From the IMG/VR virus record IMGVR_UViG_3300030376_004208, positions 1 through 41,325 of that record: a stretch of 41,325 nt of DNA, one strand, 5' to 3'. Below, piece after piece: positions 4,167-29,368 of the stretch. Origin of the DNA: a virus (lineage: Duplodnaviria; Caudoviricetes). The position numbers were made by a program, and so were the translations under genes. The first letter of the stretch is position 1. Each line of letters opens with the position of its first letter. Under the pieces are notes generated by a model. That model did not search any database and was not told the DNA's origin. It saw only the letters and a program-made list of their open reading frames with translations.

Positions 4167-4204
4167 GTTAGTGGCAATATAGTGGCAAAATGATTAAATA
4201 ACAT
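4163..4204 (-). CDS. 13-aa leader ORF MLFNHFATILPLT coupled to terS
   Basis: SD GAGGAG 5 nt before the ATG at 4204; its TGA overlaps the terS ATG (ATGA); terS has no SD of its own. Confidence 0.5.
   Translation of the reverse strand: MLFNHFATILPLT
4169..4190 (-). repeat. Integrase arm-type repeat, distal copy (TTTTGCCACTATATTGCCACTA on the minus strand)
   Basis: Exact 22-bp reverse complement of 12729-12750. Confidence 0.85.
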
Positions 4205-4467: not shown

Positions 4468-5631
4468 ATGGCAGCAACGAGATTAAAAGCAGATACTTAC
4501 CACGCTTATTGGTATGATCATTTGGGAAATAAAAAAGAGAGATCCACGAAGATAAAAGTAAGTATTTATGGTAAGAGAAAAGCTGAAAAACTAGCTGAGA
4601 TAAAGGCAGCAGAGTTTGAGATAGCAGACAAATCCAAGGGCATGATCCAATTTGATTATCAGTCTGTTATTAAAGCATCTGATAAATTACCATATGAAGA
4701 TAAAGTTAAATTAGCAGTTTACTTATCTACTTACTTACCAGATGGTATTAATACACCACTTAACAATAAACTAATATCAGTTAATAAAGCTGCTATTGAG
4801 TTTAAGAATGAGGTGAAGAGAGAGAAATCTGATCACTGGATTGAGCATTTTGATCGTGATATAAATTATCTAAAAGGGTTTTTAGGTGAAGATATTAATG
4901 TTCAAGATATTACTGTTAAGATGATGAATAAGTTTATCGGTCACAGACTTGATCAGGGCAAAGCTCCTGGTACTGTACTGAGGAATTTATTATCAATAAC
5001 TCAGTTAATGGATCATTGTGTTAATGTTGGTTATATCACATTTAATCCAGTTGATAAATGTAACAAGCCATCTAACCAGGTACAGAAGAAGAACGAGTAT
5101 GTATTTATTCCTAGTGAGATCGTTACAAAGCTTATCAATAAAGATAACATTATTGATGAACACACTGAGAATGATTATATCTTTTGGACCATGTTTCGTT
5201 ACACTGGGTTATCACCAATAGACATTACTCAATTGACTAAAGATGTAATTAAAGGTGAACCAGGTCAATTACACATAGTTAGACCAAGATCTAAAACTGG
5301 TGTTGTAGCTAAGATACCAGTACATAAGAATCTAGAAAAACTATTCAATGAGTATGGCGATAAATGCTTTGGTTTACTACCAACTAAAGGTAAGCGAGAT
5401 GCTTCGACTAGGAGATTTAAGAAGCTATGTTTACAGTACAGCAATGGTGAGTTAGAGACACCAATGTATTCACTTAGACATACATTCATAACTGAGCTTA
5501 GTCTAGCTGGGTATGAGCCAGATGATATTACACTAATGACTGGACATACTACTACGAAGATGCTTTTAAAATCATATGTAAAACAAACTAACCAAGAAGC
5601 TGCACATAAAGCAGTTAATTCAATTAAATAA
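4468..5631 (+). CDS. int: Tyrosine integrase (Ser in place of Arg-I, IntDOT-like)
   Basis: N-terminal arm-binding-like beta region, SAM-like core, YTGLSPIDI, RSKT, YSLRHTF, TGH, catalytic Tyr in LKSY. Confidence 0.93.
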   Translation: MAATRLKADTYHAYWYDHLGNKKERSTKIKVSIYGKRKAEKLAEIKAAEFEIADKSKGMIQFDYQSVIKASDKLPYEDKVKLAVYLSTYLPDGINTPLNNKLISVNKAAIEFKNEVKREKSDHWIEHFDRDINYLKGFLGEDINVQDITVKMMNKFIGHRLDQGKAPGTVLRNLLSITQLMDHCVNVGYITFNPVDKCNKPSNQVQKKNEYVFIPSEIVTKLINKDNIIDEHTENDYIFWTMFRYTGLSPIDITQLTKDVIKGEPGQLHIVRPRSKTGVVAKIPVHKNLEKLFNEYGDKCFGLLPTKGKRDASTRRFKKLCLQYSNGELETPMYSLRHTFITELSLAGYEPDDITLMTGHTTTKMLLKSYVKQTNQEAAHKAVNSIK

Positions 5632-5641
5632 GGAGGCAGCA

Positions 5642-5785
5642 GTGAACGCATTAAAAACAAAGATAGAGATCTCAAAGCAAGAAAGGAATCTGCTTAGAGT
5701 ACATTCAATGACTCAAGGCATTAGCCTACAGAAGATGATCGGAATTATATTAAGAGATTATATAAGTAGGCACATGACCAATTAG
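5642..5785 (+). CDS. Small ribbon-helix-helix-like protein (47 aa)
   Basis: SD AGGAGG, GTG start; MNALKTKIEISKQERNLLRVHSMTQGISLQKMIGIILRDYISRHMTN has an alternating beta strand, helix, G-I-S turn and second helix. Not in the ORF track. Confidence 0.7.
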   Translation: MNALKTKIEISKQERNLLRVHSMTQGISLQKMIGIILRDYISRHMTN

Positions 5786-11151: not shown

Positions 11152-11409
11152 TTATTTGCATTTATTACACTGCTCTCTGGTTTTACCTAATGATGGAAAA
11201 TCTTCATAGTATATAGTATGTTTATTATCGCTATCAGCTCTACTTCCATGTTCCCACACATTTTTACAAGTAACGCAATACCTAAGATATAAATCTGAAT
11301 CTCTAGCATATGCTCTGGCTTTACCTTCTTTTCTATTTAGGTTAGGGGCCATATTTAGAAAAGCTTCTATAATGTTTTCTGGCTTGTCATTATTTTTCAT
11401 AGGCAGCAC
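11152..11409 (-). CDS. Zn-finger protein
   Basis: [10 protein letters not shown]...CNKC. Confidence 0.7.
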
Positions 11410-11579
11410 TTCTTATATTTTTTTTGAGAACCACAAGGACATGGTTCGTTCCTACCAATTTTTTTTGTGGTTCTTTTGAAAGTAGTATAGCTCTTGAGGA
11501 ACTTAAAGTATGGTCCCCAGCCGCCTTTCTTACGAATAAACTCACCATCGTGGTCTGGATGCTTAAATCCATCTTTCAA
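11397..11579 (-). CDS. Small SEC-C motif protein
   Basis: C-terminal [20 protein letters not shown], a canonical SEC-C metal-binding motif; TTG start right after the upstream stop. Confidence 0.8.
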
Positions 11580-11753
11580 TTAAATTACGCTGGACTCTAT
11601 ATAATGATCTAAATCTGCTTTGTCAATTCTATGGGATCGATAACCGAATTTGTATACTTTAAGTTGCTCGGTTCTAATCAAATGTCTAATATGATCTACC
11701 GACATACTGATGTGTTTTGCTGCTTCTTGAATAGTAATTAATTGTGCTGCCAT
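11580..11753 (-). CDS. Excisionase/Cox-like winged-HTH protein (57 aa)
   Basis: MAAQLITIQEAAKHISMSVDHIRHLIRTEQLKVYKFGYRSHRIDKADLDHYIESSVI fits the HTH_17/Xis pattern; SD AAGAAGGA; divergent from the repressor. Not in the ORF track. Confidence 0.85.
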   Translation of the reverse strand: MAAQLITIQEAAKHISMSVDHIRHLIRTEQLKVYKFGYRSHRIDKADLDHYIESSVI

Positions 11754-11941
11754 AAAAATTCCTTCTTTGTATGTTTTGTGTGATTTTGTATAACTATTAT
11801 AATATATATAAAACTATTTATACAATAATAAACTATCATAGAACTACATACATTAGCATATTTATACCTATATTAGCATATATAAACAAATGATGAATTT
11901 GTTTGTAAAACACACATACCAAAAAAAAAGAGGAGTTTTTT
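11754..11941. promoter_or_regulatory. Lysis-lysogeny switch region (divergent promoters/operators)
   Basis: AT-rich gap between divergent xis/cox and repressor; repeated AACTA(T/C) boxes and ATTAGCATAT twice (11852, 11872). Confidence 0.7.
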
Positions 11942-12721
11942 ATGACTATTAATATAGGCGATATAATTCGCAAAGTGAGGTTAAAGGCTGGTTTAACTCA
12001 AGAAGAGTTAGCCAATAAATTGGGTGTGTCTGCTATGTCTATACATACTTATGAACACAGTAAACGCAATCCATCCACTAGAGTTCTTAGTAGATTAATA
12101 AAAGAATACCCTGAAGTTGAACAATCAGTTTATAGTACAAACAAACTAGATGATGAGCCAAAAAAAGAAAGGAAAAAAGAAATCGTGAATACTAATATTT
12201 ATGAAGATCATATTGCATTACAGAAAGATAAAATAATTAACCTAGAGAAAGAAAATTTAAGATTAAAAGAATCTTTAAATCTTAAAACTCCAGAGTCATC
12301 ACATTGGGATGATTTGAAATTTCATTACCAAACAGAAGTTGAATTACATTGGATATCTTTTGGAGTATTAGGTAGAACTATATTGAGCGTTAACAACTTA
12401 AGAACACAATCTGAAATACTTGGTTATTCTGAAAGACAGTTAAAAGCTATGTGGGATGTTGGCACTAAATATCCCGATATGAGCAAACACCCTATTGATG
12501 GCATACTACACCAAGATAGTAAAGATGAGCTTCAAAATATTGCAAAAACACTACCAACTGTATTTGGTGCTATTAAAGATATGATTGGTAATCATTATAT
12601 ACCAACTAAGCTAATGTATAAGTGTAAGGATGGTGGCTTTGTAGGTGCTATTTCTTATAATAAAATTGATTGGAGATCTCAAAGAGTTCATTCTAAAATA
12701 GCTTTTTTAATTGAAGAATAA
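11942..12721 (+). CDS. XRE-family HTH repressor with coiled coil and PAS-like C-terminal domain
   Basis: N-terminal IRKVRLKAGLTQEELANKLGVS...YE...RNP HTH; C-terminal ILSVN...EILGYSERQL, ILHQDS, YKCKDGGFV PAS/PAC-like motifs; no S24 motif. Confidence 0.8.
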   Translation: MTINIGDIIRKVRLKAGLTQEELANKLGVSAMSIHTYEHSKRNPSTRVLSRLIKEYPEVEQSVYSTNKLDDEPKKERKKEIVNTNIYEDHIALQKDKIINLEKENLRLKESLNLKTPESSHWDDLKFHYQTEVELHWISFGVLGRTILSVNNLRTQSEILGYSERQLKAMWDVGTKYPDMSKHPIDGILHQDSKDELQNIAKTLPTVFGAIKDMIGNHYIPTKLMYKCKDGGFVGAISYNKIDWRSQRVHSKIAFLIEE

Positions 12722-12730
12722 GAAATTATT

Positions 12731-12753
12731 TTGCCACTATATTGCCACTATTT
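12731..12753 (+). repeat. Integrase arm-type site, left of the attP core
   Basis: TTGCCACTATATTGCCACTATTT, a tandem TTGCCACTAT; identical to 12918-12940. Confidence 0.85.
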
Positions 12754-12820
12754 ATGACATATTACTGCATACAATGGCATATTATAAAATAGAACAGTTT
12801 ACTGTTTGTCGAGGGGAAAG

Positions 12821-12866
12821 TGGTGGGCGATGAGGGATTCGAACTCTCGACCTCTACGATGTCACG
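12821..12866 (-). mobile_element. attP: attP core: 3' half of tRNA-Val(GAC)
   Basis: Minus strand CGTGACATCGTAGAGGTCGAGAGTTCGAATCCCTCATCGCCCACCA: anticodon loop with GAC, TTCGAAT T-loop, CCA end; 5' half absent; flanked by arm repeats. Confidence 0.85.
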
Positions 12867-12917
12867 ACAGTGACTATCATCGCTTTGTCGAGGATCTTTT
12901 GAAAATTGTTAAAATCA

Positions 12918-12940
12918 TTGCCACTATATTGCCACTATTT
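12918..12940 (+). repeat. Integrase arm-type site, right of the attP core
   Basis: Identical 23-mer to 12731-12753. Confidence 0.85.
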
Positions 12941-12982
12941 TTTCCATAGAACTACATAGAATCTAATACATTTTTAATACAT

Positions 12983-13015
12983 GGGGGGAGCGGAGAACAG
13001 CAAACCTCTCCCCCC
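12983..13015 (-). terminator. Putative terminator of the late/lysis operon
   Basis: GGGGGGAG...CTCCCCCC stem just after the endolysin stop; weak U tract. Confidence 0.55.
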
Positions 13016-13023
13016 TGGGATCC

Positions 13024-13509
13024 CTAAAGATACTTTGAAACTTGATCTATATATTCTTCTGGATCACCAGCACCAAGCTCAGTGTTATACCACTGCTTCC
13101 AATATTTTGCCTGACCTTCTAATGTTTTTGGGATGGGATGTGGGACCCTATAATATTTAATTCTAGCATGAACTATTCCAGCAGCTAAATTAGTTCTTAA
13201 TAGAAAGTTCCATTCATTCTTAGTTCCCTTTGCCCAATACCTTAATGGGACATAGGTAGCACTTACACAACTACTTAGCGTTTTTGGCCTAAATCTGAGC
13301 CAATTAGTATTATTATCTAATGCTGTATCGCTTTCTATTTGCCAAAAGCCATTAGCTGGACCATCACCTAATTGTTTAATATATTTAAATCTAGATTCTA
13401 TAATAGCAGTGCCGATCAGCAGATCTATAGCATCGCTACTAGCGTACTTAGGACCAAGCTTAGTTAGGGTCCTTAATGTAAGGTCCCTGATCTGTGAAAT
13501 ATCAATCAA
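13024..13509 (-). CDS. Endolysin, lysozyme/transglycosylase-like
   Basis: AIIES catalytic Glu, GPANGFWQIE, YWKQWYN; last gene of the late operon, after membrane proteins. Confidence 0.7.
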   Translation of the reverse strand: MIDISQIRDLTLRTLTKLGPKYASSDAIDLLIGTAIIESRFKYIKQLGDGPANGFWQIESDTALDNNTNWLRFRPKTLSSCVSATYVPLRYWAKGTKNEWNFLLRTNLAAGIVHARIKYYRVPHPIPKTLEGQAKYWKQWYNTELGAGDPEEYIDQVSKYL

Positions 13510-20776: not shown

Positions 20777-23700
20777 TTATAGTACTACTTTTCTTTTCTT
20801 TTTCTTTGTTGGTTCTGCTTCGCCCCTAGCTAACCTTTGATGTTTTAAAAAGTCGTTTATAATTTTTGGGACCATCTTACCATTATGATCCTTTACTAGT
20901 TTTATATCTTTTTCAGCTAATGCACCAAACTTGATCGCATCATGTACATATTTTTTAAACTTAGATACTTCAACATGGTTATAGATTGTGTGTTTCGCTT
21001 CGTATTTCATTTTAAAAATCAATCTTTTTTCTGTCGCTCCAGTTAGGTCTGGCTTAGAATAAAACTGTCTTATAAATGGAATTTTAGATACTTCTGTAGA
21101 TTTATTTTGAGAAAAGTTCATACCCAGATCAAAAGACCTTTGAAAGAATTTTCCAGTACCACCAGTTAAAAATCCGAATATGTGATCTAATGCATCTGGG
21201 TTTACATCAATTACACCTGGGATTGTATGATCCTGGACTGTGCCATCTCTTTTTTTGATCAGACCTTTATATCTGCGGCCACCACTTATTAATGATAAAC
21301 TTTCAGTGGTCCACCTGGATACCCAGCTAGGTGGGTTTTTCTCATAATAATTTGAAAAATTAGGTTTGCTGCGATCATAATATTTAGGTTTCATAAAAGG
21401 TGTACCAGCAAAGTTTTTGTTTTCTGCTAATTGTACAATAGGATCAAGAACTGTTGGAGAGATTGCTTGTAATAAGCTGCCATCGCCAAATGGGGATACA
21501 GCATCTGATGCTGCTTTTAAGACCCTGCTGCTTAAACCGATATAGTCTACATACTTAGCACCATTCTTTTTAGTTTGATGAATACCATCTGCTATAGCTT
21601 GACCAGCTACATGAAATATATTATATCCATATGGGACCTTAACTTTATACGCTGTACCATCTCGATTCATCCACATTAAATAATTGTCTTTTTCCCAGTG
21701 ATTCTTTTTTTCCCACTCCTCATCATTCATGTGGTAATTCCTTAATGACCAGATCATGCTATTAGCAACCATACCACCAACGATCATTCTTGTCTTTTTA
21801 CTATTAATAATAGACTTAGCTATTCTGGCATTACCCTGGACTGTAGCATTAAAGAATAAATAAAATGTGTTAAAGAGTGTGGACCACTCACCTTTCTTAT
21901 TAAAGTTAACAGTAATGTTTTTCGCTGCTTGAGCAGCTTTCTTCTTACTGAGTCCTTTTTTAATCAGAGCTTCATAAGTAGCTAACCTGATCCCTGATTC
22001 AACTGCTTCGTTTGCTTGTTCAATTAACTCTAAAAAATCTTTACCAGCTTGGACCACACCACCTTTTCCATCTTCAACATTTTTTAAAGCTTTTTCAACC
22101 TTTTCCTGGTGTTCATCTAAAGAAGCCATATCAAACCAACCTACTTTACCACCTTCCTTTTTTAGCTCATCATACATCTTGGACCAATATGCAGTTCTAT
22201 CACCTCGTACATTTTTCCAAACACCACCCATAGCTTTAGTGACATTTGCTGCCGCAGTCTTAGCTACACCATCGTATTCACCACCAAGATGGACTAAAGC
22301 TGTTTGTATATCTCTAAAAAAGTTGGTGACAATAAATTCTGGGTTAAAAGTTGTTACAATAGATCTGATATAAGCATTGGCCTGATTTAAATATTTATAA
22401 GTTTTTTCTGCACCTAAGTTTTTCAATCCAGAAGCAAGTGCTTCATCTTCAATTGTGATCAGGTACAGATCACCATCCCTTCTAACTGCTAGGATATTAT
22501 CATCCATTTTAAATTGTGGCTGCATGAATTCCACTTCCCCATCTTTATTGAACTGAGGTCTATATCTCATTTTTTCAATTTTCCAGGACTCACTTTGCAT
22601 CTCTTCAGCTAAGTTTAAAAACTTTGCAGCAACTTTATTTTTTTCTGATCTTCTCATTACACCCATCATTTCATAGATGGCACTAAAGACTGGGTTACCC
22701 CTTACCTTAGCTGATCCTTTAACACGCTTGAGCTCTGATCCCTGGGGAGTACTAAACCCCTTACCAACAATGGTCCTATTCTCTACATCTTTAATAACAA
22801 AAAGCGGCACATAATCTTTATAATAATCATTAAGGTAGTCATAGGTCTTACGATCTATTAATCCGCTGTTTAACCGCATCCTAAGTCCCCTTTTTGTGAC
22901 CTTACGATAGAACTCCTTTGCGAAAGCTTCTATCTTTTTATCGCCTTTATATTGTTTAAGGATCTCTTTAGCCTGATCATTGGTCATCCCTGATCCACCA
23001 TCTGGTAAATCTTCATTGATCTTAGCTACATGTTCGTTACGCTCTAAAGCATGTCTAGCGTGTAAGTATGATCCAAAATCCTCCATACTGTAACCAGCTT
23101 TAATAATTCGTGGCAGCAGCGAATCTTCACGACCAAATATATCTTCTTCAAATCGGTCCATAAGTTCTCTGGTTTTACCGATGTATAATTCTTGAGCTAG
23201 GTAGGCATCTTCCTCATCAGATATCTCTCTGACTTCTTTGAACTTATCCATAACATAGCCGAGTCGATTCATCTTATCGACTATCTTACGATTAAATAAT
23301 TGTGTATAGTTCTCTGGATCTAGCTCAATACCAAAGTTCGAGTCTGGTCCAGCTAGTTGTTTAGGGGTTTTTTGTTTGGGGATTAGCCGCTTAGGGCGAA
23401 CTGCAAATACTACTTTTTGGCTTTTGCCTGGGTTTCCCCAGCCATACTTTTTGGAGTACCTTTCGTTGATTTTTTGGATGTCACCAGAAACCTGGTTGAA
23501 AACCCTGGTTGCAGCATTACGCTGTCCGCTTTCACTAATCCTTCTTCTATAATCTTTGCCATTGCTATAATCCTCCGTTAATTTACCTATAGATTGAGCT
23601 CTTTGCAAATGAATAGTTTTATCAGAGCCTTCCAATGCTGACTCAGCAGCATCTTTTACTTTTTTATAAAATGTATTATTATCAATACCACTGAATGGGT

Positions 23701-26700
23701 TACCATTTTCATCTGCAAAATTGACTACAATACCACCATAATTAGTTGGCATAATACCAAAATCATCACCTAGTTGATCGTTTACAGATCTAAATTCTTC
23801 TGTTGTTAGTCCCTCTTTAACTACTAAACCAACTGCATTTGCTTGTTTTAGTGATTGTGGTTTTAATTCTTTTGTACTTCCAATAGCATCCTGATGAAAT
23901 AATAAACCTACTATACTGTTGTGGACATCTATTGTTTTAAAAAAGTTTGGATCAATTTTATCTTTTATATCTTTAGCTGAAGCTATAGATGGTACTAAAA
24001 CTTCCACTTGTTTTGATGGACTAACAGCACCTTCCCAAAATCCAGGACCATCAAGACTTCTTACTTCTGGTATTTTTAGCTCTTTAGCTATAATGTTTTT
24101 ACCTTTATCATCTGTGATTACTTCGCTCATATCTTTATGATATTCCATTTTTTGCTCATAAGAAGCTTCATGTATTCCAGGTAAAATATCTGATCTTGTG
24201 CTAGGTATAAATTCAAATGAAATTCTACCTTCATAGATCTTCATTGCATCAGCATAGTCTACTTTAGCTATGTCTAATCTTTCTTGAGATGCTGGGGTAG
24301 ACTTCATTAATCGCAAAGCTTTTTTAAGTGGCATTTTATTACCATTGATAGTTTCCCATCTAGCTTTAGCACCTACCCATATTGCTGCCTGAGTTTGTTT
24401 TGGGGTCCATCCTCTTTTTGTAGCAATCCTTCTTACATCTTCAGCAACAGTTTTATACTGTGCTCCAGTTGGAACTTCATTTGGAAAACCATAGGCTCTC
24501 ATCATCCACACATCTACTGTTACTCTATTATCATCAGCATTAGTCAATGATCGCTTTAGATTCTCTGCAAATGAAATGAGCTTGGCATCATTAATGGATT
24601 CTTTAAGATTTTTACCTTCTGCTAGTGCTTTTACCCAACCTTCGACTCTAGCTGGGAATCTACCAGCACCTTTAATATCTCCCTGAGCAATTTGATACAT
24701 AAGCTTTACAGCTTGACCAGTGTTTGATTTGACTGGCATACCAGCACTGGTAACAGCGATCAAGTCCAGTATTAATTCAGCTTGTTTCATATCTCCACCA
24801 GCCAGGTCTAAGGCTGCCTGAGCACTATTATCGTACCAATTTTTACCTACTTCTCCTTGATCAGCTAACTCTTCTACTCGTTTTCTAAGTGTACTTAATT
24901 TAGATCTAGTGTTTATGCCTTTTGGAAATCCTACAAATTGTTTAGTGGTCCCAACTCTTTTTAATTGGAACTGGATCTTTTTCATCTTACCACTAAGTTT
25001 TACTGGCTTCTTACCAGGAATTAGATCACCTTTTTCTATTTGTTCTTTACGATCTAACTCTTTGACAAAGCTTTTATCCTCTATATAAGCATTAGCTTCT
25101 TCTAGTGCTTCTTCCTTAGATGTAAAGTCACCTAGAGTAAAATTTTTCTCTAAATCAAAAACTGACCACTCATTTATATCTCTTCTATGAGTTATTTCAA
25201 TATCATATTCTTTATTTTCATAAATTATTTCATCAGATATCTTTGCCAACTCACTATCTTTTTCAAAATCTTTTAATGTGAGTTCAGATATTTCTATAGT
25301 TTTATCTTTTAATTGTTCAGGTATGTATTCAATGTCAAAATAATCATTGAATTTGTGCAGATTAAATCCTTTCCTATTGTACCACTTTGCTAACTCATCA
25401 GTGTTAGGTCCTTCAATACCAATTTGTTTAGCATACCCTTCTATAATTGTTCCAGTTTCATCTGCTGCTTCTTTGAGCATTTCTAATAATTTATTTCCAT
25501 TACCTTGGCCCTTATCAAATGCCATGATCGCTGATAATTTGACTGTCTTTTTGCCTTCATTTCTTTTTCTAAATGGATATGTTCCCTGGTCTTGCAATTC
25601 AAGTTGGCCAATATTACCTACCATAACCATACCTCGATCAAGTGGGTTATTTGTAAGGAATGTATTTTTCTTTTGAAGATGTTGAAATATTTCTAACCTT
25701 GGAGAATTTTTTGCTTCTTTATCTGTTATAGGACTCCATTGTTCAAATGGTTTACCACCTGGCTGCTGCTTTGGTTTCTTCTTAACCTGGAACATGATCT
25801 TAGGACTAGCCTTATCAGGCTTAGGATTGAACTGGCCTTTGATTTGGTTAGGATTGAAAGCTATGTAAACCTTATCAGATCCAGCATAATCAGGCATAAT
25901 ATCTTCTGAAGCTACAATACCATCAAATCCCCTTGCTTTTAAAGCATTCATTAGAGCTATGTTATTATCAATAAAATTATATATTGGGAATTGATTTATT
26001 GTAGCGTATGCTTTAGGAGTAAACCCCGAACTATCCATTTTATAATTAGAATGTTTTTCGTTTGCAACCTCTTTAACAAAATCATTTGTTATCTGCTGAT
26101 CTTCTTCCTTTGTTAACTTTTCTTTTTTATGATCTGTTAAAAATTCATTTAAAGTGACTAACCAGTCATCGAGATGCATATTAATACCTAAATCTAAAGT
26201 TTTAAATGCATCTAGAGGATCTCGTCTTATATCAAGAGGATTTTTTATATTTAAATACACTGGATAAACCTGAGCATCTTTTTTAGTACCTGGATCATCA
26301 CTGTAACCCCTATGATCTCTGGCATAATAATTCGCTACATTAGGAGATGGTGTGAAATAAGACATTTGATTAAAGCTATCAATATTTTTTGCGGTCCCAT
26401 GATACATTACCATAGGCTTACCATTTTCTTTTACTTCAGATCCTTTAAACCAATCCTGAAACTCTTTGGATCTAGGTTTTTCTTTTAGCCTTAGTGCAGC
26501 AGTTTTTTTCTTAACCTGGTGCATGATCTTAGGACTAGCTTTATCAGGTTTAGGATTGAACTGGCCTTTGATTTGAGAGGGCTCAAAAGCGATGTAAGAA
26601 TCTTCGCCAAATTTTTCTAAAGTTTTTGCGGTCCGCCCTATTGAGGTTCCAAAATTACCTGCAACTCCTTCAAATTGATTGGAGTAGACTATACCATCAT

Positions 26701-29368
26701 AACCTTTTTCTTTTATTTTATCTCGAATATATGCTGTTTGGTCATCATACATTAAATTTCCATCGAAATCATAATCATAGTCACTTTTATGCAATGGAGA
26801 ACCTGGTATTTCAAATTCTACTAGTTCTTCATAGAGAGTCCCAAATTCGTTTGGATATAATTTATCAAGTGTATTAGCAACCTCACCTGGGTTCCACTGT
26901 GCAATATCAGGCAACCTTATTGGATTGTTTATAGATAAATAAACTGGTTTTATATTGAGACCTTGTTTAGGTATTTGATTTGTTTCTGTGAGGTAATCAA
27001 GTCTTGCATTTGCTTGTTCTACTGGTCCAAAATGAAATCCGAATTGTTTTTTGTCATATTCATTAGCATCTAATTTGAATGAATCAAAATCTCTATTGGT
27101 CCCATGATATACCACCAATGGCTGACCTTTTTCATCAACGACCTTAGAATCTCCAAACCACTTTTTAAACTCCTTAGACTTAGGCTTTTGCCTTAATTGA
27201 AACTGAGCCTTCTGGACCTTGATCTTTTTCTTTTGTGCAGCAGTTAATGGTTTAAGCTGCCTGGTCCCAGCTTTAGTATATAAATTCTGAATTCGCTTAG
27301 GGATCTTAGCTCCCCTGATCTTTCTGATCCTGGCAATAAGATCAGTAAGTGTTTGCTTTATATCTTTAAGTCCAGGGATCCAGTCAAATACTTCTCTTAT
27401 CCCACCAGCCTTTTCATGCATCCCTTCAGAAAAGAAATAGTCTCTTCCTTCTTGGCCGAAATGCTCTTCAATAGACCTTGTATCGCCTGACTCTTCGTGA
27501 TACTTTGCAAAAGACTTTCTATCTTTTTCTGGCATATGTTCATAAAAGTCATGGTAGAATTCTTCGACAATTGTGTCGGCATCGTGACCCTTATATAGCT
27601 TGATGGCTGTCCTGGTCGCATTCTTTTGAAAGTCAACAGTTGTTGACCCAGTCGCAAAGTATTCTCCTGACTCTGCTTCTTCTTTTGTAATACCTTCCTC
27701 TTCATAAAATTGCTCTGGATCCTTTCCTAATACATTGATGATATAATCATCATTCATTTGTAAAACTTCGTTACTGATCTCTAGACTAGCTCTGCTATCA
27801 AATTCTGGATCTTGATCTAAAAGATAGTTAGCAATAGATGCTGACCCTGGGGAAATCTCCTCAGATTCAAGTGCTGCTTGAACTTCTAATTTTGCAGTAG
27901 GCTGTGTCTCTCTATTTTCTTCTTTTTCTACTTTTGTTAATTGAGCTCTTTCTGGGCTCATACTGTCAAGAGCAACTTGCTCTTCAACTAATGCTTCAGA
28001 TTTCTTTTTAGCATCAGCATCAGTTATAACTTTTGCAGCACTTACACCACCACCTAAACCTACTGGTATGATCAGGCCTTTTGCAGATTCAACAAATGTT
28101 TCACGAAGCCTACTAAGCATTTCTTGACCTTCTGCTTGAGGTATAGATCCATCCATGATCTTATTATTTAACCAGGTTGCTGTTTCTTCAGATGCTATTA
28201 AAGTGACTTCCTGAGCAACTTCTTGACCTACTTGTTTTAAATATTCCGCTCCAGCTTTCTCACCAACTTTTTTAAGTCCAGTTGCTACACCACCAGCTAT
28301 AACATCTACAAATTCTTTTTTAAGAGATACTGGTATTAAACCTTTCATTGAAATAGATTCTATCATTGCATATGGTAGAGCTCCTATTGAAGCTGTAAAA
28401 CTAGCAACATCTTCGTTTACACCTTTTCTTACTTGATCTCTATAAATAGATCCAGCACCTTGCATATACCAGAACTTTGCAACATTAGCCTGAGCACCAG
28501 TAGCCATAAAGGTTGGGACTGCTATAAGTTCATCAGGGATCGGTGTTAATGCAGTATATGCTGCTGCTGCTCCACCACCCATTGCTGCACCTTTAAAACC
28601 TTCCTTGATAGATGCCCACATACTTGGAGCAAAATTGGCAGTAGGGATTAATATTTCTTCTACCCAACCATCTGCATTTATTGGATCGGCTGCTTGTTGC
28701 TTTTCAAACTCATCAGTCATAGCAGCTAAATCTTTATATCCAAGTTTCCCTGTTCCTGTCATAAACTCAAACCAGAGAAGATCCATAGCAATATTTTGTT
28801 TACCTCTAGAAAAAGAAGTTTTTAATTTTTCCCATTTTGTTTTAGGGACCAATGACTCTGGTCTTTTTTTCTGTACTTCTTCCCTGGCTAACTTTGCAAT
28901 GGTCCCAATGTCATGGACCCCATCTTTAACCATAGACATAATAACATTCCTGGCTTCAGGATATTGTTGTACTAATTCTACTAAATTTGTTTTTACTTCT
29001 TTTTGAGTTTCAGCTAATTGCAGCCGCTGATCCACACGACCTTTATTTGCTTGTATAGTTTGTTCAACTCTTGATTGATCAGTAAGTGATCTGGTTGGAT
29101 GGTTTGGTCCTTTTAATATTTTATCTGGAGTTTCACCAAGCCAGTGATATTTTCCATCAGGTTGCAGCTCTGGCTTTATACCACTTTCAATTGCAGTTTT
29201 ATAATCAAAGCCATTTCCTGATCCGCTGCCATAATTTTGAATTGAATTAGCCATATGTAATAAAACATTTTCTGGCTCATTTGGATGATCAAATCTTAAT
29301 TGGTCATACCAAGACTTAATATCAGGGTCATTTAAAGCGATTTGGGTCCAATGTTGTTGATTTGCCAT
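20777..29368 (-). CDS. Giant virion ejection / polyvalent protein (two ART-like domains, GNAT, glycosylase-like domain, LPD38-like C-terminus)
   Basis: Two WF..S.V...G.P.V.YHGT...PVYL.I.NP...GYDGI modules; KGQGNG...WYNRKGF GNAT motif; WY...VTVDVWM...QAAIW domain; last of three ejection-position genes. Confidence 0.8.
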   Translation of the reverse strand: MANQQHWTQIALNDPDIKSWYDQLRFDHPNEPENVLLHMANSIQNYGSGSGNGFDYKTAIESGIKPELQPDGKYHWLGETPDKILKGPNHPTRSLTDQSRVEQTIQANKGRVDQRLQLAETQKEVKTNLVELVQQYPEARNVIMSMVKDGVHDIGTIAKLAREEVQKKRPESLVPKTKWEKLKTSFSRGKQNIAMDLLWFEFMTGTGKLGYKDLAAMTDEFEKQQAADPINADGWVEEILIPTANFAPSMWASIKEGFKGAAMGGGAAAAYTALTPIPDELIAVPTFMATGAQANVAKFWYMQGAGSIYRDQVRKGVNEDVASFTASIGALPYAMIESISMKGLIPVSLKKEFVDVIAGGVATGLKKVGEKAGAEYLKQVGQEVAQEVTLIASEETATWLNNKIMDGSIPQAEGQEMLSRLRETFVESAKGLIIPVGLGGGVSAAKVITDADAKKKSEALVEEQVALDSMSPERAQLTKVEKEENRETQPTAKLEVQAALESEEISPGSASIANYLLDQDPEFDSRASLEISNEVLQMNDDYIINVLGKDPEQFYEEEGITKEEAESGEYFATGSTTVDFQKNATRTAIKLYKGHDADTIVEEFYHDFYEHMPEKDRKSFAKYHEESGDTRSIEEHFGQEGRDYFFSEGMHEKAGGIREVFDWIPGLKDIKQTLTDLIARIRKIRGAKIPKRIQNLYTKAGTRQLKPLTAAQKKKIKVQKAQFQLRQKPKSKEFKKWFGDSKVVDEKGQPLVVYHGTNRDFDSFKLDANEYDKKQFGFHFGPVEQANARLDYLTETNQIPKQGLNIKPVYLSINNPIRLPDIAQWNPGEVANTLDKLYPNEFGTLYEELVEFEIPGSPLHKSDYDYDFDGNLMYDDQTAYIRDKIKEKGYDGIVYSNQFEGVAGNFGTSIGRTAKTLEKFGEDSYIAFEPSQIKGQFNPKPDKASPKIMHQVKKKTAALRLKEKPRSKEFQDWFKGSEVKENGKPMVMYHGTAKNIDSFNQMSYFTPSPNVANYYARDHRGYSDDPGTKKDAQVYPVYLNIKNPLDIRRDPLDAFKTLDLGINMHLDDWLVTLNEFLTDHKKEKLTKEEDQQITNDFVKEVANEKHSNYKMDSSGFTPKAYATINQFPIYNFIDNNIALMNALKARGFDGIVASEDIMPDYAGSDKVYIAFNPNQIKGQFNPKPDKASPKIMFQVKKKPKQQPGGKPFEQWSPITDKEAKNSPRLEIFQHLQKKNTFLTNNPLDRGMVMVGNIGQLELQDQGTYPFRKRNEGKKTVKLSAIMAFDKGQGNGNKLLEMLKEAADETGTIIEGYAKQIGIEGPNTDELAKWYNRKGFNLHKFNDYFDIEYIPEQLKDKTIEISELTLKDFEKDSELAKISDEIIYENKEYDIEITHRRDINEWSVFDLEKNFTLGDFTSKEEALEEANAYIEDKSFVKELDRKEQIEKGDLIPGKKPVKLSGKMKKIQFQLKRVGTTKQFVGFPKGINTRSKLSTLRKRVEELADQGEVGKNWYDNSAQAALDLAGGDMKQAELILDLIAVTSAGMPVKSNTGQAVKLMYQIAQGDIKGAGRFPARVEGWVKALAEGKNLKESINDAKLISFAENLKRSLTNADDNRVTVDVWMMRAYGFPNEVPTGAQYKTVAEDVRRIATKRGWTPKQTQAAIWVGAKARWETINGNKMPLKKALRLMKSTPASQERLDIAKVDYADAMKIYEGRISFEFIPSTRSDILPGIHEASYEQKMEYHKDMSEVITDDKGKNIIAKELKIPEVRSLDGPGFWEGAVSPSKQVEVLVPSIASAKDIKDKIDPNFFKTIDVHNSIVGLLFHQDAIGSTKELKPQSLKQANAVGLVVKEGLTTEEFRSVNDQLGDDFGIMPTNYGGIVVNFADENGNPFSGIDNNTFYKKVKDAAESALEGSDKTIHLQRAQSIGKLTEDYSNGKDYRRRISESGQRNAATRVFNQVSGDIQKINERYSKKYGWGNPGKSQKVVFAVRPKRLIPKQKTPKQLAGPDSNFGIELDPENYTQLFNRKIVDKMNRLGYVMDKFKEVREISDEEDAYLAQELYIGKTRELMDRFEEDIFGREDSLLPRIIKAGYSMEDFGSYLHARHALERNEHVAKINEDLPDGGSGMTNDQAKEILKQYKGDKKIEAFAKEFYRKVTKRGLRMRLNSGLIDRKTYDYLNDYYKDYVPLFVIKDVENRTIVGKGFSTPQGSELKRVKGSAKVRGNPVFSAIYEMMGVMRRSEKNKVAAKFLNLAEEMQSESWKIEKMRYRPQFNKDGEVEFMQPQFKMDDNILAVRRDGDLYLITIEDEALASGLKNLGAEKTYKYLNQANAYIRSIVTTFNPEFIVTNFFRDIQTALVHLGGEYDGVAKTAAANVTKAMGGVWKNVRGDRTAYWSKMYDELKKEGGKVGWFDMASLDEHQEKVEKALKNVEDGKGGVVQAGKDFLELIEQANEAVESGIRLATYEALIKKGLSKKKAAQAAKNITVNFNKKGEWSTLFNTFYLFFNATVQGNARIAKSIINSKKTRMIVGGMVANSMIWSLRNYHMNDEEWEKKNHWEKDNYLMWMNRDGTAYKVKVPYGYNIFHVAGQAIADGIHQTKKNGAKYVDYIGLSSRVLKAASDAVSPFGDGSLLQAISPTVLDPIVQLAENKNFAGTPFMKPKYYDRSKPNFSNYYEKNPPSWVSRWTTESLSLISGGRRYKGLIKKRDGTVQDHTIPGVIDVNPDALDHIFGFLTGGTGKFFQRSFDLGMNFSQNKSTEVSKIPFIRQFYSKPDLTGATEKRLIFKMKYEAKHTIYNHVEVSKFKKYVHDAIKFGALAEKDIKLVKDHNGKMVPKIINDFLKHQRLARGEAEPTKKKKRKVVL
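25779..26575. repeat. 68-bp direct repeat (25779-25846 and 26508-26575) ending each ART-like module
   Basis: 64/68 identical; encodes QIKGQFNPKPDKASPKIM(F/H)QVKK. Confidence 0.9.

Follow-up and report, generated by a model that had tools for sequence, protein, structure and literature searches.

A predicted PAS-fold domain on the immunity-slot XRE regulator of a temperate phage likely infecting Marinimicrobia: a candidate chemical input to lysogeny

The natural inducers of marine prophages, in an environment where strong DNA damage is rare, are a standing question, and the chemical inputs that have been described use separate receptors and antirepressors, as in the VqmA-Qtip, LuxR-XRE and AimR systems. 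VqmA of vibriophage VP882 is described as activating the antirepressor gene qtip beside a separate cI gene (PMC8284805), AimR as working through a peptide (PMC11945551), and SOS-independent modules as working through small antirepressors (PMC10432266). Proteins that combine an XRE helix-turn-helix (HTH) with a PAS-like ligand-binding domain are known from the MmyB/MltR group (PDB 3pxp), in which MltR is reported to hold a bound fatty acid (PMC3406030). In literature searches over mostly openly accessible papers, no phage repressor to which a PAS domain is fused came up, and the entries listed for Marinimicrobia temperate phages showed nothing on the present regulator. A presumed occurrence of PAS in the Vibrio factors TF63 and TF72 was not borne out by what the published description of them states.

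The regulator analysed here is encoded in a stretch of 41,325 nucleotides (the window), which is a complete virus genome record with direct terminal repeats and contains terminase, head, tail and replication genes as well as a tyrosine integrase (Table 1). The term prophage, used in a preliminary description of the sequence, is therefore replaced here, the record not being an integrated prophage. Directly behind the XRE-PAS gene lies a 43-nt attP-like core flanked by two tandem 11-bp repeats, a layout also seen in six relatives with other tRNAs. The core was matched once in a species-level genome collection, by the tRNA-Val gene of genome G001, and among 401 genomes of the host phylum only G001 (100%) and G342 (98%) exceeded 94% identity to it. 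Six of ten clusters of neighbouring proteins in such genomes carry the name Candidatus Marinimicrobia or Neomarinimicrobiota, and from these names and the tRNA-Val match the host likely belongs to the uncultured marine phylum Marinimicrobia. An integrase together with an attP core that matches a host tRNA marks the phage as probably temperate. Contigs of two other studies include both the phage and the host tRNA, but no attL/attR junction was seen in them. RNA runs contained next to none of the region and so speak neither for nor against its expression. ARAGORN detected no intact tRNA in the window, and Rfam gave nothing above threshold in positions 11400-13100.

Three further observations concern the genome at large. 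A third copy of the arm-type repeat, at 4170-4190 (minus strand), immediately precedes the putative small terminase's start codon and lies some 280 bp upstream of the integrase. A hairpin rich in G+C, whose loop has the conserved segment ACAGCRAA, is located at about 12963-13023, in the interval from attP to the end of a lysozyme-like gene; it recurs at the same place in G412, G413, G419, G422 and G423 and has no Rfam match. In the virion region, the window encodes a 2863-aa protein (20777-29368, minus strand) that is also present in G412 and G413.

Table 1. Features of the window that bear on integration and on the putative switch.
Feature	Position	Strand	Basis or remark
Tyrosine integrase	4468..5631	+	PHROG 1 E 7.8e-33; PF00589
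Ribbon-helix-helix-like gene, 47 aa, directly behind integrase	5642..5785	+	Iterated profile
Orphan CxxC...CxxC zinc-ribbon protein, candidate antirepressor or late activator	11152..11409	-	Co-occurs with PAS form
HTH_17 (excisionase/Cox-like) gene, 57 aa, Cro slot	11580..11753	-	Pfam E 1.8e-9; PHROG 66
AT-rich divergent control region, 188 bp	11754..11941	.	Position
XRE-HTH / coiled coil / PAS-fold regulator	11942..12721	+	259 aa, immunity (cI) slot
XRE (HTH_3) DNA-binding domain, aa 1-67	11942..12142	+	Pfam and structural matches
Long helix, aa 84-114, predicted coiled coil	12191..12283	+	Model and conservation
Divergent PAS domain (predicted), aa 117-255	12290..12706	+	Model, fold searches, dN/dS
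Tandem 11-bp direct repeat, presumed left arm-type site	12731..12752	+	Repeat
attP-like core, 3' half of tRNA-Val(GAC)	12821..12863	-	Identical to gene in G001
Tandem 11-bp direct repeat, presumed right arm-type site	12918..12939	+	Repeat

The regulator gene is a single uninterrupted frame. Its product has one Pfam match, HTH_3 at aa 9-56 (E 9.8e-12), and its XRE domain structurally resembles P22 c2, P2 C and ImmR (Z 9.2-9.5). A full-length model built from an 87-row alignment (mean pLDDT 89.4) consists of HTH helices (aa 5-67), a low-confidence linker (69-79), a long helix (84-114) carrying a conserved IxLQKxKIxxL motif, and a compact domain (117-255), so that Pfam and the model agree with the succession of XRE-HTH, coiled coil and C-terminal domain originally read from the sequence. 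The long helix likely acts as a coiled coil that both dimerises the protein and transmits a signal. The motifs from which a PAS-like domain had been proposed are all present, i.e., ILSVN (147-151), EILGYSERQL (158-167), ILHQDS (188-193) and YKCKDGGFV (226-234), and the extra segment WDVGTKYPDMSKHP at aa 171-184 is a 14-residue family-specific insert in the PAS domain. As had been claimed of the S24 Ser-Lys motif, no S24 domain is found by Pfam in the 259-aa protein.

Modelled alone from a 97-row alignment, the C-terminal domain yields a confident structure (pLDDT 90.0, pTM 0.84) with its elements in PAS order, namely a short N-terminal helix, two strands, four helices and three strands, which agrees with the feature by which PAS domains are recognised, an antiparallel sheet of five strands in which helices C-F lie between strands B and G. 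Foldseek against the PDB gave eight matches at E<=0.001, those listed being PAS/LOV domains, with TM scores of about 0.45 by query and 0.6 by target. A VIA-align comparison with 48,161 chains likewise placed PAS/LOV domains at the top (best 3h9w, Z 9.2, rmsd 2.6, 101 residues), and the top matches include the HIF/ARNT/BMAL1 PAS and KinA PAS-A dimers. The ESM Atlas's own model independently matches PAS_3/4/9 clusters (TM 0.54-0.61). The Z values are modest one by one, and all lists point to a PAS fold for the modelled domain; the check by modelling and Foldseek that had been suggested for the preliminary description thus returned a PAS fold and not a different one.

At the level of sequence the link is faint. 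The 259-aa protein has no match to a Pfam PAS profile, a single one of 34 homologous domains matches PAS_3 (E 0.012, below the cut-off), and profile-profile comparison with more canonical PAS domains gave a probability of 14.7%. When PAS was looked for with Pfam, with phmmer and with a profile run against PDB sequences, HTH or chance matches alone came back, and among INPHARED phages the C-terminal part was without a match. A PAS fold in the models and so faint a sequence link suggest that the domain represents a PAS subfamily that has diverged, in which the first hairpin is lengthened and the 14-residue insert is present. In six pairs the dN/dS of the PAS part is 0.21-0.33, so that purifying selection acts on it. 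Hydropathy suggests that the small residues T131, A236, S238, N240 and S251 line the inner face of the sheet, and the conserved R145, H183, K212, H218 and Y226 lie near them; small residues at this face can equally reflect tight helix packing. K252 (99%), K241, Y239 and D/H128 are among the most conserved residues; they occupy positions alternating with those of the hydrophobic face and may lie at the surface. NCRFLQ is the flavin-binding motif of LOV photoreceptors; it occurs in 0 of 87 homologues, which also show no cysteine cluster (median one Cys).

The gene belongs to a sizeable family in which the two ends of the protein have separate histories. A phmmer search with the coil-PAS part yielded 93 clusters at 50% identity, 73 of which are 225-285 aa long, and HTH_3 is found at E<=0.1 in 57 of 87 full-length members. 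A survey of 37 non-redundant loci, counting the window and leaving out chromosomal copies, showed a divergent ORF upstream of the XRE-PAS gene in 28 of the 30 readable loci, which bears out the expectation that homologues would lie in the cI position, and the integrase directly downstream in at least 13 of 31, the profile having overlooked some that were visible otherwise. An integrase is present in all six family records that are at least 90% complete and in eight of ten tested overall. In five near-complete genomes (the window and four relatives) and in 18 records chosen by capsid or lysozyme no S24 domain was detected. The statement that no antirepressor is recognisable agrees with the annotation, antirepressor or ImmA-type names being absent from the 47 ORFs of the window and from 150 of the 316 small ORFs of six relatives. 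The two parts of the protein are exchanged or lost independently, as judged from sequence comparison: the HTHs of the 40 pairs with at least 80% identity in the PAS part share a median of 16% identity, PAS identity is below 50% in 21 of the 30 pairs whose HTHs are at least 60% identical, and PAS types sharing 20-25% identity are swapped behind near-identical HTHs. HTH swaps would create new immunity types and PAS swaps new inputs. The idea that the phage gene yields a shortened product through programmed frameshifting was rejected, as there is no conserved slippery site (in-frame A_AAA_AAG occurs in 6 of 53 genes, at scattered places).

Relatives were also chosen by their major capsid protein, so as not to select on the XRE-PAS gene. 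Among the seven that are at least 90% complete, two encode the HTH-coil-PAS form (G421 and G422), three an HTH-coil form only (G419, G420 and G423) and two have no XRE gene (G417 and G418). The HTH-coil genes occupy the same slot as the XRE-PAS gene of the window, encode 99-122 aa and are directly followed by attP, which leaves no space for a PAS remnant; the HTHs of G419 and G423 share 47% and 43% identity, respectively, with that of the window. The PAS domain is therefore an optional add-on, which is more in keeping with an input domain than with a dimer core that the protein must have. This bears on the possibility that the domain binds nothing regulatory and adds dimer or higher-order contacts for cooperative binding to operators, similar to the C-terminal domain of lambda CI minus the protease. 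Many PAS domains are described as association modules (PMC8694187), the best fold matches include the HIF/ARNT/BMAL1 and KinA PAS-A dimers, and the domain shows no cofactor motif (LOV 0/87). However, a coiled coil is already there and suffices in three relatives, PAS types as divergent as 20-25% identity replace one another behind HTHs that are nearly the same, and response regulators and stand-alone host regulators carry the domain too. As the optional presence of PAS in close relatives argues against a purely structural role, we consider this explanation unlikely.

A different partner for the domain could be a protein. The PAS domain would then be a docking surface, in the manner of Qtip or the smORF products, for a host factor or a phage antirepressor, the best candidate for which is the zinc-ribbon protein, and it would bind no small ligand. 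The zinc-ribbon family is present in nine of ten PAS-bearing records versus one of six without PAS (Fisher p 0.017, near-identical relatives merged), a count that leaves out G424, in which the slot lies at the contig edge, and the co-occurrence spans two virion types. The conserved K252, K241, Y239 and D/H128 would fit such a surface, and separate antirepressors are described as commonly inactivating non-cleavable repressors (PMC10432266). Against this, the position of the zinc ribbon varies, G414 lacks it and the PAS-less G420 has it, and the host chromosomal copies of the regulator have no zinc-ribbon partner beside them. An early CxxC-CxxC gene might just as well encode a late activator of the Ogr type, which counts against its being an antirepressor. 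Docking of a protein appears rather unlikely. As an observation apart, the pattern CxxC-W-YxxFPxYG-CxxC of this unannotated zinc ribbon is frequent in these phages, at times in two copies, and the ESM Atlas gave no named family for the protein.

The tentative first choice of input to the PAS domain is a small molecule, i.e., a putative ligand. This reading is favoured because the module is optional and exchangeable, occurs in stand-alone host regulators and has small residues on its presumed inner face. The PAS-less and XRE-less relatives must switch otherwise, and PAS is therefore not the only trigger of the group.

How far the switch depends on this protein is a separate matter. The XRE gene is missing from G417, G418 and the 66% complete G427, which keep the integrase, an attP-like site and the HTH_17 gene; the loci without it lie at L241:5292-5804 (G417), L232:15044-15477 (G418) and L234:9135-9609 (G427). 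In the preliminary description the protein was called a master repressor. Its place in the cI slot stands, but master is too strong a word, as integrase-bearing relatives do without the gene and the ribbon-helix-helix-like (RHH-like) gene is kept more widely in the capsid group. The latter gene, a candidate rival or co-regulator of lysogeny judging from its distribution, was found with an iterated profile in 12 of 16 records, including the three XRE-less ones, with weak Pfam support (NikA-like, E 0.02-0.09 in homologues). The XRE-PAS protein could accordingly be an accessory regulator, acting in superinfection immunity or as an activator or tuner of an early or integrase promoter, while the RHH-like or HTH_17 protein mainly holds lysogeny, and known XRE-PAS proteins such as MmyB are described as activators (PMC3406030). 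However, no RHH-like gene was found in three records that carry the XRE-PAS gene and an integrase (G407, G409 and G416), and it may be that the relatives without an XRE gene are derived and mostly lytic. Moreover, an XRE gene divergent from a small HTH gene is the arrangement of a lambda-type switch and is reported to act so in Phaeobacter prophages (10.64898/2026.07.02.736140). A purely accessory role is, on balance, improbable.

The arrangement of the locus itself is in keeping with an immunity function. The XRE gene is divergent from the small HTH_17 gene in the Cro slot, as expected from the cI-like position ascribed to it earlier. The HTH_17 gene, present in 13 of 16 related records, is the first of the leftward early operon, from which the XRE-PAS gene faces away, and this position makes repression of the leftward promoter the likely role of the protein. 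The longest exact arm of an inverted repeat in the control region is 8 nt, a length reached by 237 of 500 shuffles and not above chance, and no sigma-70 consensus was seen there. A 14-nt word is exactly common to the control region (11837-11850) and attP (12945-12958; p 0.002); the idea that it is a shared Cox-like site is not supported, the finding not being repeated in six relatives (p 0.18-0.90).

In the mechanism that we propose, the XRE-PAS protein would dimerise through its coiled coil, and the dimer, to judge from its position and from XRE biology, would bind the 188-bp control region and repress the leftward early operon. By analogy with other PAS proteins, the PAS pair would change the register of the coil on input, and a small host or environmental molecule at the PAS domain would loosen or tighten DNA binding via the coil, with induction proceeding without RecA cleavage. 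That the predicted PAS domain is an input on an immunity-slot repressor, binds a small molecule and operates without RecA cleavage is quite possible, although short of an even chance, and the repressor may in this way let the phage read a chemical cue rather than DNA damage. A wider form of this proposal, possible but somewhat doubtful, is a one-component switch of two cassettes, in which the HTH would set immunity and the PAS pocket the cue (a metabolite, a signal or redox state), phage and host would trade the cassettes, and neither RecA nor an antirepressor would be needed.

The architecture is common to the bacteria of the host phylum and their phages, as far as sequence comparison can tell. 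The divergent PAS domain was found in 9 of 401 host-phylum genomes, one of them weak, in stand-alone XRE-coil-PAS genes, one of which is divergent from a TonB-dependent receptor gene, and appended to REC-LuxR regulators that have a kinase as neighbour. G001 encodes an XRE-coil protein with a canonical PAS domain (PF00989, E 8.4e-11). The tree of phage and chromosomal forms is poorly resolved, with long chromosomal branches, and does not settle the direction of transfer. Two groups of chromosomal loci deserve mention on their own account. REC-LuxR regulators with a C-terminal PAS domain lie beside a HisKA_3 kinase at L020:1465-2580 and L024:1498-2583. At L029:200-939, L030:240-979 and L031:1124-1902 a -1 offset, in each case at the same A_AAA_AAG run, separates the XRE-coil part from the PAS part, and a fourth host-phylum genome has a fused in-frame counterpart (L027:1486-2232); the offset is a candidate programmed frameshift that would give short and long regulators.

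An SOS-linked route through another gene is possible, since the host group has LexA (52 of 61 over the cut-off). Upstream of the lexA operon, 17 of 20 genomes (L090-L109) carry a conserved 23-bp tandem/palindromic motif, a candidate Marinimicrobia LexA box derived from one operon. It is absent from the phage, in which the best score is 2.6 bits versus 32-36 for true sites, and this is modest evidence against a LexA-controlled antirepressor, the box coming from one operon. A short LexA-box pattern, searched genome-wide, was uninformative and was set aside.

A repressor that senses directly would, if the proposal is true, follow a simpler logic than the systems with separate receptors, and with one gene and a 188-bp region it would be tractable in E. 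coli. The family provides natural controls, since HTHs of one type occur both with PAS and without it, and one PAS occurs behind HTHs that are unrelated. The regulator also offers a first handle on how the temperate phages of a marine phylum that is both widespread and uncultured are regulated, and its C-terminal domain a probable new PAS subfamily missed by Pfam.

Compared with known systems, the protein resembles MmyB/MltR in uniting an N-terminal XRE HTH with a PAS-like domain at the C terminus in one chain, as a one-component regulator. The proteins of that group are described as controlling antibiotic pathways from chromosomes or plasmids, for the most part in actinomycetes, whereas the present protein sits in a phage immunity slot and has a linker and a 30-residue coiled coil between its domains. 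The MmyB-type Pfam family was found neither in the 259-aa protein nor among the families listed for its homologues, and 3pxp (MltR) is not among the matches listed in the structure searches. With VqmA it shares the character of a phage-encoded transcription factor with a PAS ligand domain, which in VqmA is described as able to steer lysis-lysogeny, but here the PAS domain forms part of the very XRE protein that occupies the cI slot. In VqmA, PAS comes first and is followed by the LuxR part. The present protein is not a LuxR-type HTH protein activating an antirepressor gene, its HTH being N-terminal and XRE-type and no antirepressor being named in the window. Similar to lambda CI and P22 c2, the 259-aa protein has an XRE-type HTH (Z 9.5 to P22 c2), encoded divergently opposite the small HTH gene in the Cro slot as in the lambda CI/LexA type, and its HTH varies far faster than its C-terminal domain; it differs in that there is no S24 autoprotease and that the C-terminal domain has a predicted PAS fold and can be missing. 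P2 C/Cox, N15, ImmR/ImmA and the TF-smORF modules are likewise described with no autoprotease, an excisionase-like HTH gene opposite and often an integrase directly after the repressor (PMC10432266), but here a PAS domain is fused and no known antirepressor or metalloprotease family is detected. Finally, the hth | xre-luxR-luxI modules reported from the Roseobacter group share marine phages, a divergent hth/xre pair and a chemical input (10.64898/2026.07.02.736140); as described, they keep the LuxR sensor and the LuxI synthase as separate genes, whereas in the window the sensor fold is fused to XRE and no synthase is seen. The combination of XRE and PAS is already known from MmyB/MltR, and sensing by a PAS-bearing repressor is plausible; what appears to be new is a regulator with a predicted PAS domain that is not cleavable, stands in a phage immunity slot and evolves in modules.
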